A stretch of DNA of 64,000 nucleotides from Escherichia coli (GTDB lineage: Bacteria > Pseudomonadota > Gammaproteobacteria > Enterobacterales > Enterobacteriaceae): NCBI RefSeq assembly GCF_024700885.2, contig NZ_CP117016.1. One strand, written 5' to 3'. The first letter of the stretch is position 1. Each line of letters opens with the position of its first letter. This document shows positions 808-35,070 of the stretch, in pieces. The notes under the pieces are model-generated. The model had not been told where the DNA came from and searched no databases. It saw only the letters and a list, made by a program, of their open reading frames with translations. The translations under genes and the position numbers were made by a program.

Positions 808-1287
808 ATGTTCACGATTAAAACAGATGATCTCACCCATCCAGCAGTGCAAGCATTAGTGGCTTACCATATTTCCGGCATGCTGCAGCAGTCTCCCCCC
901 GAAAGCAGTCATGCTTTAGATGTGCAAAAATTACGTAACCCGGCAGTGACATTCTGGTCAGTATGGGAAGGCGAACAACTCGCAGGAATTGGTGCGCTGA
1001 AGTTGCTGGATGATAAACATGGCGAACTGAAATCAATGCGTACCGCGCCAAATTATTTACGTCGAGGTGTCGCCAGTCTGATTTTACGCCACATTTTGCA
1101 GGTCGCCCATGACAGATGCCTTCATCGCCTGAGCTTAGAAACGGGTACACAGGCTGGATTTACGGCCTGCCATCAACTTTATTTGAATCATGGTTTCGTT
1201 GATTGCGAACCGTTTGCTGATTATCAACTTGATCCACACAGTCGATTTTTGTCATTGACGCTATGCGAAAATAATGAATTGCCATGA
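808..1287 (+). CDS. yedL: GNAT-family N-acetyltransferase YedL
   Basis: Track ORF of 159 aa; acetyltransferase-like core; synteny with yedK. Confidence 0.8.
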   Translation: MFTIKTDDLTHPAVQALVAYHISGMLQQSPPESSHALDVQKLRNPAVTFWSVWEGEQLAGIGALKLLDDKHGELKSMRTAPNYLRRGVASLILRHILQVAHDRCLHRLSLETGTQAGFTACHQLYLNHGFVDCEPFADYQLDPHSRFLSLTLCENNELP

Positions 1288-1294
1288 GCCAGAC

Positions 1295-1335
1295 GCAGCA
1301 CATTCTTGCATTCGACGTGCTGCGCCTTTATTCAT
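1295..1335 (+). terminator. Hairpin plus T-rich tract after yedL (copy A of a repeated palindromic element)
   Basis: GCAGCAC...GTGCTGC stem followed by CCTTTATTCAT; a near-identical element occurs at 33377-33416. Confidence 0.5.
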
Positions 1336-1704
1336 CACCAGCCGCATATGTCTTGTCCTTAGACGCTCCTTCCACATGCGCCACAAGAAACCTCTATTCC
1401 AGTGACACAATTATGCCTAATTATTTCCATTGCCCGGAATATGAATAAAAACATCAACAAAGATTAAATTATTCAAACGTTACTGTTGCGTCAGTGGTCG
1501 TAGCAACATCCGACGTGGTGATGTGTGTTAAAGGAGACGCTCTGATGCTCAGATGGTTTATCGCGTTTACGGATCGTGGATGGCAGAAAACAATCAGGAT
1601 CAGGTATCCATTTTAAACCAGAAATTGATTGAGTTTGCCCCATCCATGCCCCACGCTGTGGGATCGGATGTAATTAAACAAGCATAGTCAACAGGTTACA
1701 CAAC

Positions 1705-2019
1705 CTACACCTGCATGCTCATCACTTCCTGATACGCCGCCACCAGCTTATTACGCACCTGAATCCCCATTTGCATTGAAACTGAGGCTTTTTGCATATC
1801 GGTCATCACATCGTTTAACGCCACGCCGGGTTCACCGAGAGTGAATTTTTCTGCCTGCGTGCGGGCGGCTGTTTGTGTATCGCTTATGCGATCGAGCGCG
1901 GCGTGCAGCTGCCCGGCAAAACTAATGGTCGGTTGCGGCAGTGATTCCTGCGCACGTGCACTCATCGCCGTGGTCTGTAACTGGCTGATAACCCCTTCAA
2001 TCCCCTGTATCGCTGACAT
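1705..2019 (-). CDS. fliE: Flagellar hook-basal body complex protein FliE
   Basis: Track ORF 1705..2049; FliE-length product (104 aa) starts at the internal MSAIQGIEG; divergent from fliF. Confidence 0.9.
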
Positions 2020-2233
2020 TTTCATCTCCCGGATAATTTCTGGTAGCAAAGCCTACCAGTAAGTCAATAAGACAAAGGCGCTAAATAGCAACAAAAAAAC
2101 GGGTTTATTGGCGGATAGAAAAAAACGAAAGCACAAATAATGGGAGCGTCAATTTTTCGAGTTTGCTGACCCGGGAGTGAGTCTTGTTCCACTTTGCCAA
2201 TAACGCCGTCCATAATCAGCCACGAGGTGCGCG
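2020..2233. promoter_or_regulatory. Divergent fliE / fliFGHIJK promoter region (class 2 flagellar promoters expected)
   Basis: Intergenic region between divergent flagellar operons; individual FlhDC or sigma-28 sites not resolved by eye. Confidence 0.45.
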
Positions 2234-5558
<3,325 letters not shown>

Positions 5559-14232: not shown

Positions 14233-14319
14233 AAATCCCGACCCTGAGGGGGTCGGGATGAAACTTGCTTAAGCAAGAAGCACTTAAAAAATTCGTTACA
14301 CCAGGAAATCTGATGTGTT
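14233..14319 (-). ncRNA. dsrA: DsrA small regulatory RNA
   Basis: Minus strand reads AACACATCAGATTTCCTGGTGTAACGAATTTTTTAAGTGCTTCTTGCTTAAGCAAGTTTCATCCCGACCCCCTCAGGGTCGGGATTT, matching recalled 87-nt DsrA including its terminator hairpin. Confidence 0.93.
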
Positions 14320-22508: not shown

Positions 22509-23055
22509 GACTCAATCATTTTTTGAACAAATAGATAACTTTTGCGCAATGGCAGTGAATACAGGAAAAATCGTTTTGAGCGATTTTATTTATCTTTGAT
22601 ATCGGCTTTATTAATTCATTCAATCAATATATTAGCACTGATTACAATTATACCTTTTTATTTTTCTGTGTCATGATGCCTCCGTTATTAGCCTTTTATC
22701 GTCTTGTTTATATTTTTTGGGCCGGCATGATGCCGGCTTTTTTTATGCCTTCATTAATGTGCGCGTGATCACACCAGCCGTTTGGCGCAACAATCATTGA
22801 TACCCCCTATGTTTCCGCTCAACTCATAACATATTGATATACATTTATAATTTTCATGAATATTTATATTTAGAATTCATAATTCTGAATCATATTAAAT
22901 AGATTAGAAACATTTTGAAATCTTTTAAATACATTTGTTACATGTAATCTTTAAAATAAAATGAACTTCATAGAATAGTATCCAAATGTGCTTTTTTTTG
23001 GATAACGGCACTTATTGATATATTCATGAAGATTATAATCACAAGGGAATACATA

Positions 23056-30053: not shown

Positions 30054-30580
30054 TGAACTGCACCCCAAATGTTGGACATAATCTGACATCTGAAGGTGCA
30101 GTTTATGAAACATTCATTTGAAGTAAAACTTGCCGCTGTAAATCATTACCTGGCTGGTCATGCAGGCATCATTTCTACGGCAAAACTCTTTCAACTTTCT
30201 CACACCAGCCTCTCACACTGGATTAATCTTTTTCTTCTTCACGGTCCTCGGGCACTGGATTGCAGACACAAGCGTAGCTATTCTCCTGAAGATAAACTTT
30301 GCGTGGTTCTTTATGCTCTCGGGCATTCTGAGTCTCTACCCCGGGTAGCTGCCCGGTTTAATATTCCCAGCCACAACACGGTTAAAAACTGGATAAAAGG
30401 CTACCGCAAATCTGGTAATGAGGCCTTTATCAGGCGCAGGAAGGAGAAAAGCATGACCCGTTCTGATGATACCCATGAAAACGAGGCAAACATGACGCCG
30501 GAAGAGATGAAGAATGAGCTGCGTTATCTTCGCGCAGAAAATGCATATCTGAAAGCCATGCAGGAGCATCTCCTGGAAAA

Positions 30581-31485
<905 letters not shown>

Positions 31486-33013: not shown

Positions 33014-33075
33014 TGGCGGAGAGAGGGGGATTTGAACCCCCGGTAGAGTTGCCCCTACTCCGGTTTTCGAGACCG
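33014..33075 (-). other. Truncated tRNA-Ser(CGA) serU, 3' 62 nt only; prophage attachment-site remnant
   Basis: Minus strand reads CGGTCTCGAAAACCGGAGTAGGGGCAACTCTACCGGGGGTTCAAATCCCCCTCTCTCCGCCA (anticodon loop to CCA end of serU as recalled); the 5' part (D-arm and acceptor 5' strand) is absent. Confidence 0.85.
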
Positions 33076-33376
33076 ATGATACAGAGTCGAAAAATCAAAG
33101 AGTTAAAAATTTTTCTTGGAATAAATGTCTTAAAATCGTACAAGAAAAATCAATGAATTACATAACATTAAAGAAGAATATTCCAAGCCTTCTTGAGGCT
33201 ACCACCTGTTTTCAGGTGTCATTCAGACGTGATTTGCCCCAGATTGGGAAAGCACGCTTTTTTCTCAGCTTATTCCGTTTTGCCTGTGTGTTGAATAATT
33301 CCACTGCAGTTATATAAAATCGGTAACGTCTGGAAATCATTCAATACTCGCACTATCGAAAGTTCACCAGCCAACC

Positions 33377-33416
33377 GCAGCACGTTCTTGCATACGACGT
33401 GCTGCGGTTTTCTTTA
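33377..33416 (+). repeat. Palindromic hairpin element, copy B (near-identical to 1295-1335)
   Basis: GCAGCACGTTCTTGCATACGACGTGCTGC followed by GGTTTTCTTTATG; about 28 of 31 core positions match copy A. Confidence 0.5.
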
Positions 33417-33566
33417 TGATTTATGCACAATGGACAATTTGAAATTATTGATGATTGAATGGTGCATCGTTTTCTGAACCTACACTGATTTTTTGGTATA
33501 GCCTTGCCTAGCCAGTCTTACCGGATCAAACCCTTCGCTATTGCAATACTAACCAAAATCATCAAT

Positions 33567-33595
33567 TTGACAGCGATTAACCAAAATAATAGTAT
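33567..33595 (+). promoter_or_regulatory. Candidate sigma-70 promoter of the cargo diguanylate cyclase
   Basis: Perfect -35 TTGACA, 17-bp spacer, -10 TAGTAT, about 70 bp upstream of the ATG. Confidence 0.4.
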
Positions 33596-33665
33596 ACTAT
33601 CACCAGTAAGAAATTATCGTTATTTGTAGCGATACATATTATATATATCATTCTCAGGTGCGTAC

Positions 33666-34997
33666 ATGATTATCAACCAGGTACCTATAAAAATAAAAAT
33701 CTTCATCTTTTTATTTTCATGCATCTCTATTATATTTTTGTTACTGCATGAAAATAATGGAATATACATAACACAAACAACACAAATAAGTTATAGTGTT
33801 TTCATTATTGGGCTTTTTTTCATAAACCTGATGATTTTTATTTTTCTATTGCTTTACTATGTTTCTAATCAGAGACAAAGTTATCTCTTAATTCTTTCAT
33901 TCGCGTTTTTGAGCAACACGTATTATTTATTAGAAGTGGCTATTATTTCTTTATCTCCGTTAGGTAACGATTTATCTACAATCTATCAGAAATCAAATAA
34001 TATCGCAATATATTATCTATTCCGTCAGTTCAGCTTTATATCTATAATCTTTCTGGCTGTTTATTCCACCAATGTTAAAAATAAAAGTGTTTTAGAAGAT
34101 AAAAGAAACATAATAATTGTTGTTTTGTCAATATTAATTCTTTTTATTACTCCGTTTGTAGCAAAAAATCTAAGCAGTGACAATATAAAATATAGTCTTA
34201 ATATTATACAATACTCGCTGAATCGTCATTTGTCGACGTGGAATATCGTGTACACCAAAATAATATCAGTATTTTGGCTTGTATTACTTATCAGCTCATG
34301 CATCAGCATACGTAATTACTCAAAAATATGGTTGTGTATAATACTTATTAGTATAGTGTCAGTATGCAATAATCTAATTTTATTGTATTTTATTGATAAA
34401 TCCCATCCTGCATGGTACATGACAAAATTTCTTGAATTGATATCAATGATTTATATCATTTCAACACTCATGTATTATGTTTTTAGGAAATTAAATCATG
34501 CTAATCATATGGCAATTCATGATCCACTAACGAATACATACAATAGAAGATACTTTATTGACTCATTGAAGAACATATCAAAACACCATGATTTCTCAGT
34601 AATAATGTTAGATATTGACAGTTTCAAAAGCATCAATGACAAATGGGGGCATCATATGGGTGATCAAGTCATAGTAATGGTTACCAGAATAATAAAAAAA
34701 TCCATCAGGAAAGAGGATATATTAGGGCGCTTAGGCGGTGAGGAGTTCGGTATTATCATTAAAGGTAATACTCAAAAGCTCTTGCTATCAATTGCAGAGC
34801 GAATCAGAAAAAACATTGAAGAGCAATGCTCGGAAAAATTATTATCGCATGGACCTGAGAAAATAACTGTCAGTATTGGTTGCTTTACTTCAAAAGAGAA
34901 TAATCTCAGTCCATCTGAAATGTTAGTCAATGCCGACAAAGCGTTATATCAAGCCAAAAGAACCGGAAAAAACAAGGTGATAATTCACTCAAAATAA
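33666..34997 (+). CDS. Membrane-anchored diguanylate cyclase (multi-TM sensor domain plus GGDEF), DgcX-like prophage cargo
   Basis: 443-aa ORF; very AT-rich (I/L/F/N/K/Y-rich) N-terminal membrane domain; C-terminal GGDEF domain with RLGGEEFG active site and upstream RKED I-site-like motif. Confidence 0.85.
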   Translation: MIINQVPIKIKIFIFLFSCISIIFLLLHENNGIYITQTTQISYSVFIIGLFFINLMIFIFLLLYYVSNQRQSYLLILSFAFLSNTYYLLEVAIISLSPLGNDLSTIYQKSNNIAIYYLFRQFSFISIIFLAVYSTNVKNKSVLEDKRNIIIVVLSILILFITPFVAKNLSSDNIKYSLNIIQYSLNRHLSTWNIVYTKIISVFWLVLLISSCISIRNYSKIWLCIILISIVSVCNNLILLYFIDKSHPAWYMTKFLELISMIYIISTLMYYVFRKLNHANHMAIHDPLTNTYNRRYFIDSLKNISKHHDFSVIMLDIDSFKSINDKWGHHMGDQVIVMVTRIIKKSIRKEDILGRLGGEEFGIIIKGNTQKLLLSIAERIRKNIEEQCSEKLLSHGPEKITVSIGCFTSKENNLSPSEMLVNADKALYQAKRTGKNKVIIHSK

Positions 34998-35017
34998 ACA
35001 CCTTTTTAAAATACAGC

Positions 35018-35050
35018 CCCAATAAACTGCAGAATATTATCCCATATAAT
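35018..35050. terminator. Inverted-repeat hairpin between convergent cyclase gene and tail-fibre cassette
   Basis: CTGCAGAATATTAT-cccat-ATAATATCCTGCAG, 14-bp arms with one mismatch. Confidence 0.5.
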
Positions 35051-35070
35051 ATCCTGCAGTTCGTAATGCA

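Follow-up and report, generated by a model that had tools for sequence, protein, structure and literature searches.

Two related hairpins in an Escherichia coli chromosomal stretch as probable copies of a stem-loop closing a lambdoid-phage cassette

The 64,000-nucleotide (nt) stretch of Escherichia coli DNA analysed here (contig NZ_CP117016.1 of assembly GCF_024700885.2; the whole stretch is termed the window in the following) contains two related hairpins, of which copy A directly follows the host gene yedL and copy B lies just inside the attachment (att) site of a lambdoid prophage. Both are probably homologous copies of a stem-loop that closes a cassette of approximately 100 nt found in lambdoid phages of Escherichia, and the stem-loop itself is, as part of the same interpretation, best understood as a phage-derived intrinsic terminator or 3'-end structure that would end or protect transcripts of the sense strand (the plus strand of the window).

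When up to three mismatches were allowed, the core GCAGCACRTTCTTGCATWCGACGTGCTGCG was present at two sites of the window only (1295-1324 and 33377-33406, both on the plus strand), and no match occurred in 100 dinucleotide shuffles of the window. The two 30-nt cores, of the common form GCAGCAC(A/G)TTCTTGCAT(T/A)CGACGTGCTGCG, are identical in 28 of 30 positions; the local similarity extends from about 10 nt 5' of the stem to about 20 nt 3' of it (approximately 1287-1344 versus 33369-33426; 81-89% across 45-58 nt). The original prediction that the same hairpin stands at two junctions was thus borne out, and the folding that it had proposed as a check gave plus-strand hairpins for both copies: copy B forms a 14-bp stem with the tail UUUUCUUUAU (-24.0 kcal/mol, z = -5.1), copy A a stem with one internal mismatch and the weaker tail CCUUUAUUCAU (-15.8 kcal/mol, z = -2.4). 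The motif CACCAGCC, which had been regarded as a common neighbor of both hairpins, did not hold up as a shared feature: its occurrences at 1336-1343 (3' of copy A) and 33365-33372 (5' of copy B) are non-homologous, the latter being part of the conserved 5' part of the copy B cassette and the former a strain-variable octamer (also CACCAGCA, CACCAACA, CTCCAGCC) that aligns with phage sequence 3' of the hairpin.

The cassette became visible upon alignment of copy B with two E. coli K-12 copies, one located between ecpE and ykgJ and the other at the Qin prophage end: the conserved block of about 100 nt starts at GTAAAATCGG, approximately 60 nt 5' of the hairpin, so that copy B represents the 3' end of a cassette composed of a conserved 5' part of about 60 nt and the hairpin. 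Viral contigs and other loci supplied a sample of 143 copies, 92 of them distinct. In these, the 5' part GTAAAATCGGTAACGGCTGGAAATCATTCAATACTCGCACTATCGAAAGTTCACCAGCCARCC hardly varies and the hairpin loop UUCUUGCAUACGA is mostly conserved, while the stem sequence varies freely yet stays paired; in a few copies an unrelated hairpin has been substituted. Among 27 diverse copies, double-sided changes were found at 9 of 12 stem pairs, with 95% of the cells paired; none of 500 shuffles equaled the observed value, and shifted registers collapsed. Because of indels, RNAalifold on a plain MAFFT alignment missed the hairpin, which was therefore assessed with a structure set by hand and with a covariance model. 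Across 89 distinct copies the mean folding energy is -18 kcal/mol, and at least four U residues are present in the 8 nt past the stem in 52 of them (three or fewer in 37). A putative outer helix, GGCUGG/CCAGCC, displayed no double-sided changes in the 27-copy set; since it is never altered on both sides, it is neither supported nor refuted. The covariance model matched the copy B cassette at 33312-33417 with 128.8 bits and copy A with 35.1 bits, in the hairpin part only; no further convincing cassette copy besides A and B was detected with it in the window. An unrelated second hairpin (34987-35069), situated at the stop codon of a diguanylate cyclase gene and facing a fragment of a tail-fibre-assembly gene, scored 24 bits against the model, by structure only.

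A 76-nt query around copy B gave 22,227 matches, distributed over 5,414 of the 5,426 complete E. coli genomes (median of 4 and maximum of 13 per genome); among the matches listed, the highest counts belonged to O157 strains, which carry many prophages. The cassette is also present in 213 phage records, nearly all of Escherichia lambdoid or Shiga toxin (Stx) phages and including HK97 (3 nt past the annotated sib site, between attP and tfa), lambda (between ea31 and ea47) and phi80 (after the DinI-like gene dinL, which is preceded by an annotated LexA site). Against 100,044 species representatives, a pattern of the hairpin variants recovered three records of Escherichia and, in addition, four short contigs that bear the names of other taxa and are taken to be contaminants.

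The genes around the cassette follow a recurrent arrangement. In 69 of the 143 prophage copies, copies A and B not being among them, it begins 7 nt past the stop codon of an intact DinI-like open reading frame (ORF; ending ...TWESADEWFVH), and a LexA-box-like CTGT-N8-ACAG lies within 420 nt upstream of the cassette in 43 of these 69. About a dozen copies are preceded by the integrase gene int in the same orientation. The downstream neighbor is usually a convergent gene for a tail-fibre-assembly protein (Tfa) or a Pin-type invertase, in other cases a different moron; in the class of copy B, it is a diguanylate cyclase gene on the strand of the cassette. The flanks are combined in a mosaic manner (22 upstream and 39 downstream types in 60 combinations), the dinI-type upstream flank alone being paired with 9 of the 10 commonest downstream types; as the flanks are reshuffled around it, the cassette constitutes a module boundary in the mosaic phage genomes. 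The normalised mutual information with the downstream flank was 0.90 for the hairpin and 0.81 for the 5' part, that with the upstream flank 0.57 and 0.61, respectively. The variants of both parts thus travel with the downstream flank, which places the breakpoints mostly at the left edge of the cassette and not inside it. At several loci (L037, L040, L099, L106, L009, L020 and others), the cassette is directly preceded, on the side of int (IntS-type or lambda-type), by another conserved hairpin segment of about 70 nt (AGCACAAAGCCTTGCAATCCAGTGCAAAGCTTTGTGC...TCAGTTTTGTCT), which looks like a further terminator.

Outside of prophages, the hairpin occupies two chromosomal sites, yedL and ecpE-ykgJ, both of which look phage-derived. 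At K-12 ecpE-ykgJ-yagU (locus L003, 2895-3401), the remains of a dinI-like gene, the cassette and almost all of ykgJ are 84-90% identical to the best prophage segments and 77-84% to others; the prophage counterparts (L053, L069, L123, L078 and others) comprise an intact dinI, the cassette and a ykgJ-like gene. With dinI intact in the phage loci and decayed on the chromosome, the ykgJ region looks, judged from these alignments, phage-derived, which is the reverse of the direction proposed in PMC8112680. The alternative that the cassette is the ancestral 3' untranslated region (UTR) of E. coli dinI was discarded, the K-12 chromosomal dinI having an unrelated terminator.

Published Term-seq data of K-12 place RNA 3' ends at two of the cassettes. 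In that study (PMC7815308), an 'orphan' 3' end of the ecpE-ykgJ copy maps to the minus strand at 304212/3 and thus 30-31 nt ahead of the ykgJ start; its scores in three datasets are 88,000-99,000, and its Rho score is 1.44 (listed as 'No' for Rho dependence). The 'orphan' 3' end of the Qin copy, at 1632571/4, reaches scores of 2,000-3,000 (PMC7815308). The sequences flanking both ends are cassettes, and both ends are on the cassette sense strand. A dispersed terminator-like repeat, the first of the possibilities originally considered, is therefore supported by the dispersal itself, by the covarying stem and by the RNA 3' ends at the two K-12 copies; instead of a common terminator at many unrelated gene ends, which had been named as the outcome that would speak against a special element, a single lambdoid cassette with two chromosomal sites was found.

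In the proposed mechanism, the cassette sits at the end of the leftward, int-side transcription units of lambdoid phages, where its G+C-rich stem, in many copies together with a U-rich tract, would terminate transcripts or protect their 3' ends on the sense strand. The transcripts so ended or stabilised would be the dinI-like moron messenger RNA (mRNA), int-side transcripts in the excised phage and, at copy A, the yedL mRNA; the stem-loop would thereby separate upstream transcripts from the convergent genes. Termination at copies A and B, as well as the relation to int after excision, is inferred. An attachment or exchange site and a regulatory RNA of the 3' UTR are possible as additional roles compatible with this function.

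Several observations weigh against the terminator interpretation. The RNA 3'-end data come from two other, K-12 copies and not from copies A and B; the available Term-seq text (PMC7815308) reports no RNA 3' end at yedL. The intrinsic-terminator score of the ecpE-ykgJ end is 2.78, just below the cut-off of 3.0 used in that study (PMC7815308), and the K-12 ends are positioned 13-17 nt past the stem, so that an origin by processing or exonuclease stalling is as possible as one by termination. About 40% of the distinct copies lack a U tract (three or fewer U in 8 nt), and termination alone does in consequence not account for the retention of the hairpin; the loop and the 5' part of about 60 nt are more conserved than the stem, for which termination offers no reason. 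Taken together, the invariant 5' part, the conserved loop and the copies devoid of a U tract are unexplained by termination alone. Copy A has a stem mismatch and a poor U tract, neither hairpin was called by a simple promoter/terminator scan (probably owing to its 8-nt loop limit), and, at yedL, the sequence may have passed between phage and chromosome in either direction.

The features around copy B are the following:
33014-33075, minus strand: prophage att repeat on the tail-fibre side, in which 62 nt of the tRNA-Ser 3' end are exactly reproduced (100% match to the tRNA-Ser of the source genome).
33314-33372, plus strand: conserved 5' part of the cassette (GTAAAATCGGTAAC..GGCTGG..AAATCATTCAATACTCGCACTATCGAAAGTTCA..CCAGCC), from alignments of 89-92 distinct copies.
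33373-33409, plus strand: copy B hairpin with the arms 33373-33386 and 33396-33409 (14 pairs, 9-nt loop; stem covariation).
33408-33417, plus strand: U-rich tail of copy B (TTTTCTTTAT), from sequence and fold.
33666-34997, plus strand: very AT-rich gene of a sensor diguanylate cyclase, a moron situated between the cassette and the convergent tail-fibre genes.

The lambdoid prophage of about 44 kb is bounded by tRNA-Ser and its 62-nt repeat (locus L151, 22194-23361, for the far end); in the source genome, beyond the end of the window, the intact tRNA-Ser is followed after 27 nt by the 3' end of a frameshifted integrase gene. The copy B cassette is of full length and has no dinI gene upstream. 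It starts 238 nt inside the tRNA-Ser repeat, and its hairpin 297 nt inside the prophage. That copy B follows no gene which it could terminate is correct for the integrated state; for the reconstructed excised state it would not be, as int, which is on the strand of the cassette, would then lie upstream: by the geometry, int of the excised circular phage would be read across attP into the copy B cassette about 330 nt downstream. In the window, Qin and HK97 alike, the cassette lies approximately 190-300 nt inward of the attachment site at the tail-fibre end; the supposed association with island junctions is real, albeit indirect. A promoter scan at copy B gave only a weak promoter-like site (TTGAAT-18-TAAAAT, 33291-33320), the -35 element of which is unconserved in other copies.

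RefSeq places a 24-codon 'capsid protein' pseudogene fragment on the minus strand across the cassette (33315-33386), and a plasmid copy is named 'nucleocapsid protein'; these labels are most likely an artefact spread from a spurious ORF. All three plus-strand frames are open through the cassette, with a hint of 3-nt periodicity. The cassette was nevertheless rejected as a gene: it has no start codon, the hairpin is sometimes replaced outright, and the minus-strand 'capsid' fragment gains a stop codon in common variants. Elsewhere in the window, the small RNA (sRNA) STnc100 and two phage tRNA genes are located in the prophage (62731-62920 and 63620-63875), DsrA and RseX in the chromosomal part (14233-14319 and 22655-22744), and the IS3-family element IS1397 between msrQ and zinT (about 30105-31453).

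The features around copy A are the following:
808-1287, plus strand: coding sequence of yedL (GNAT acetyltransferase) with the stop codon TGA at 1285-1287, from the RefSeq annotation of the identical stretch and the sequence.
1294-1324, plus strand: copy A hairpin with the arms 1294-1301 and 1317-1324 and one A/C mismatch further in, starting 6 nt past the yedL stop codon.
1325-1344, plus strand: T-rich tail of copy A (CCTTTATTCAT) and end of the phage-homologous stretch, holding CACCAGCC at 1336-1343.
1345-1431: spacer shared by almost all E. coli, forming the 3' flank of a convergent gene (yedN/espR) in K-12 and O157; this gene is absent from the window from about 1431 on.
1541-1687, plus strand: C-terminal integrase fragment (pseudogene) directly before fliE, from annotation and translation.
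1705-2019, minus strand: fliE, following the integrase fragment.

By sequence comparison, copy A appears as a truncated copy comprising about 10 nt upstream, the hairpin and 20-35 nt downstream. A BLAST comparison of 1280-1700 with the phage loci gave a match limited to 1287-1344; the K-12 and O157 versions are 76-77% identical over 79 nt, from the yedL stop codon on, to the spacer between dinI and the invertase gene of phages. Its core is identical in K-12; of the two copies in O157, one is identical and one has a single difference. The hairpin and the following 100 nt or so are conserved across 5,231 genomes, in most of which the divergence from the window sets in at approximately 1426-1431; in K-12, this point coincides with the 3' end of a convergent DUF5503 pseudogene (yedN). 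The question whether insertions at yedL-fliE have their insertion point inside the motif is accordingly answered in the negative here, the variable part of the islet starting about 100 nt past copy A.

The site of copy A is the edge of a variable islet with effector genes of the type III secretion system and an integrase remnant. The original prediction of an additional K-12 islet with an integrase remnant needs to be modified: in K-12, the gap holds the DUF5503 pseudogene; the integrase fragment (1541-1687) belongs to the present window and, together with espR3/espR4, to the yedL-fliE gap of O157. In O157:H7 (locus L150, 351-4728), a block of the yedL 3' end, the hairpin and a leucine-rich repeat (LRR) effector gene is duplicated in tandem (espR3, then espR4) and followed by the integrase fragment; the LRR effector gene is thus duplicated in O157:H7, present as one decayed copy in K-12 (yedN) and absent from the window. 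A kinship of the integrase fragment with the cassette-adjacent integrases that were compared was considered and dropped, the C-termini being dissimilar by eye. The islet is taken here to be phage-derived; copy A is probably a leftover of phage DNA, which presumably serves as the terminator of yedL.

Among the alternative explanations, a primary role as a DNA site has to be considered first, albeit tentatively. The cassette would be a secondary attachment or recombination site with the hairpin as part of it, and its copies would mark past integration or exchange events, in a manner compatible with termination. Nakamura et al. 2021 (PMC8112680) described a 96-bp att sequence, attB-in-PP_2, in effector-carrying prophages that holds an integrated lambda-like phage; its identity to the K-12 ykgJ/ecpE spacer is approximately 81%, the homologous flanks measure 184 and 29 bp, and a chromosomal origin was proposed for it. 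In the K-12 spacer of 312 nt (L003), the cassette spans about 2960-3055 and leaves 185 nt in front of it and 32 nt behind, and these sizes fit the published values of 184 and 29; the copy B cassette aligns over its full length with the K-12 spacer copy at approximately 89% identity (counted by eye), whereas copy A shares with that spacer the hairpin part alone. The equation of cassette and attB-in-PP_2 is one of coordinate arithmetic.

The reshuffled flanks described above are likewise in line with an exchange site, as are two classes of downstream flank in which the hairpin abuts tRNA-like or tmRNA-like att fragments: in one class, the hairpin is immediately followed by GGTTTTTGAGACCGGTCCG, the reverse complement of the tRNA-Ser anticodon arm, in the other by the 3' end of tmRNA (GCGGGTTCAACTCCCGCCAGCTCCACCA) or a diverged form. 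Such fragments, which may bear on a use of the hairpin in integration, occur at L046 near 3509, L082 near 1414 and 4084, L047, L048, L079, L083 and other loci; near 1414 of L082, the junction lies inside the 3' arm, and the hairpin is destroyed. On the other hand, the prophage of the window is bracketed by tRNA-Ser and the 62-nt repeat and not by direct copies of the cassette, some 100 nt separate copy A from the start of the islet between yedL and fliE, and the variants of the hairpin and the 5' part follow the downstream flank with breakpoints mostly at the left cassette edge.

In the K-12 element CPS-53, argW is upstream of intS; if the IntS-type phages are arranged in the same way, their attP would be on the far side of int from the cassette. 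For the same reason, a use of the int-adjacent cassette as phage attP received no support, the integrase concerned being IntS. Contigs with int, cassette and ykgJ were also dismissed as the chromosomal site, their ykgJ being the phage homologue. The idea of an integration hotspot therefore survives in part: the reshuffled flanks and the apparent match to attB-in-PP_2 speak for it, whereas neither the prophage of the window nor the yedL islet is bounded at the hairpin.

A regulatory function of the RNA is doubtful. The cassette would encode an sRNA from the 3' UTR of an SOS-inducible prophage dinI-like mRNA, similar to DinR, in which the invariant stretch of about 35 nt pairs or binds protein and the hairpin terminates. 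This would be consistent with the nearly invariant 5' part and loop next to a covarying stem, with the position directly 3' of dinI-like genes preceded by LexA-box-like motifs, and with the very strong orphan 3' end at the K-12 ykgJ copy, where dinI has already decayed. A precedent exists in DinR, an Hfq-dependent sRNA processed from the 3' end of Klebsiella dinI (PMC10907235), and no Rfam family covers the cassette: searches of the whole window at gathering thresholds and of 33050-33650 at E values up to 10 yielded only a sub-threshold partial match to CssrB (RF02799; 44.1 bits versus a gathering threshold of 76, on the minus strand, with only the model ends aligned and the middle skipped).

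However, neither a 5' end nor Hfq binding nor a target is known for a cassette RNA, the putative GGCUGG/CCAGCC helix is devoid of double-sided changes, and no -35 element is conserved upstream, since the flanks differ. A pairing with ftsZ as in DinR was tried and abandoned, the predicted duplex energy being only average (-20.6 versus a mean of -20.9 for 38 control genes, by a crude method). Furthermore, the strong DNA conservation is explicable by recent spread and recombination, copy A lacks the 5' part altogether, and a literature search for the cassette sequence found no paper among those searchable. Rather improbable, too, is the wider proposal that the cassette is an undescribed, widespread functional RNA of lambdoid prophages, in which the segment of about 35 nt and the loop regulate and the same DNA doubles as a secondary attachment or exchange site. 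Two sets of known sRNAs were compared and found to be unrelated: EcsR2 (PMC4350180) is encoded in the yagU-ykgJ and not the ecpE-ykgJ spacer, and the prophage sRNAs Pas, AgvB and AsxR are situated near Q and the lysis genes.

That copy B acts as a sib-like retroregulator is unlikely. Read-through from int after excision or infection would form a nuclease-sensitive hairpin that destabilises the int mRNA, and the site would be split from int in the prophage. Its position does resemble that of lambda sib/tI, i.e. beyond attP, on the int strand and parted from int by integration (in HK97, in about a dozen other loci and, by reconstruction, in the prophage of the window). Nevertheless, HK97 possesses a sib site of its own, annotated directly 5' of the cassette, and in phages of the L009 type the HK97 sib sequence directly precedes the 70-nt segment in front of the cassette; with a separate sib in both, the cassette is a distinct element. 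Moreover, half of the copies follow dinI and not int, and the lambda cassette, between ea31 and ea47, is far from attP (approximately 3.5 kb by lambda coordinates).

A small autonomous mobile palindromic element of the kind of repetitive extragenic palindromes (REP), bacterial interspersed mosaic elements (BIME) or miniature inverted-repeat transposable elements (MITE), as originally suggested, is highly improbable: the hairpin is palindromic and dispersed, and hairpin-only copies do follow unrelated genes (copy A; L010, L012, L082, L064, L099), but there is a median of only 4 copies per genome, scaling with prophage load and almost all in prophage contexts, the alignments exhibit neither terminal inverted repeats beyond the stem nor target duplications, the hairpin-only copies share downstream phage sequence that points to ordinary recombination or deletion, and the hairpin pattern is confined to Escherichia records and the four short contigs labelled as other taxa.

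The interpretation as a terminator or 3'-end stem-loop of phage origin makes the finding a largely ordinary one, namely a terminator of a phage moron or module, parts of which had already been noticed under different names; that a phage terminator hairpin is present twice, once now behind a host gene, is in itself of little weight. Its connections with dinI-like genes, with lambda and HK97 and with a yedL terminator appear to be undescribed in the searchable papers. The one element ties together an unannotated, very strong RNA 3' end upstream of K-12 ykgJ, the attB-in-PP_2 site implicated in the stacking of effector and Shiga toxin prophages, the 3' end of the Shigella candidate CssrB and the yedL terminator, and it hints at a phage origin both of the ykgJ region and of the yedL-fliE islet edge. 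If the 5' part were indeed a regulatory RNA tied to the prophage SOS response, it would be a useful addition to phage-host RNA biology.

In comparison with known systems, the cassette resembles the sib (tI) sites of lambda and HK97 in its location just beyond attP on the int strand and its separation from int in the prophage; it has no sequence relation to them, and HK97 carries both, sib first and the cassette 3 nt later. Many cassette copies, like Klebsiella DinR (PMC10907235), follow the coding part of a gene of the dinI family with putative LexA control and close with the presumed terminator of that gene; this comparison is, however, one of position and not of sequence, the terminator of the E. 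coli chromosomal dinI is unrelated, and the pairing with ftsZ is average. In the case of CssrB, an sRNA candidate of Shigella flexneri whose 3' end was assigned from a terminator prediction (PMC3071730), the last 40 or so model positions correspond to the cassette hairpin with the loop variant of locus L056; the match of the cassette is on the opposite strand and below threshold. With attB-in-PP_2, the cassette shares the size, the homology to the ykgJ-ecpE spacer, the flank lengths and the place near effector loci at prophage ends; it differs in that neither copy of the window bounds a prophage, and the identity of the two follows from coordinates only. Compared with the intrinsic terminators at phage morons and convergent gene pairs, the loop and the 60 or so nt before the hairpin show far more conservation than a terminator requires, approximately 40% of the copies have no U tract, and the mapped 3' ends fall 13-17 nt past the stem; what the cassette shares with them is a covarying stem rich in G+C, a tail that is U-rich in many copies (copy B among them), a place right behind a gene with a convergent gene opposite, and sense-strand RNA 3' ends at two K-12 copies, that at ykgJ being listed as not Rho-dependent.

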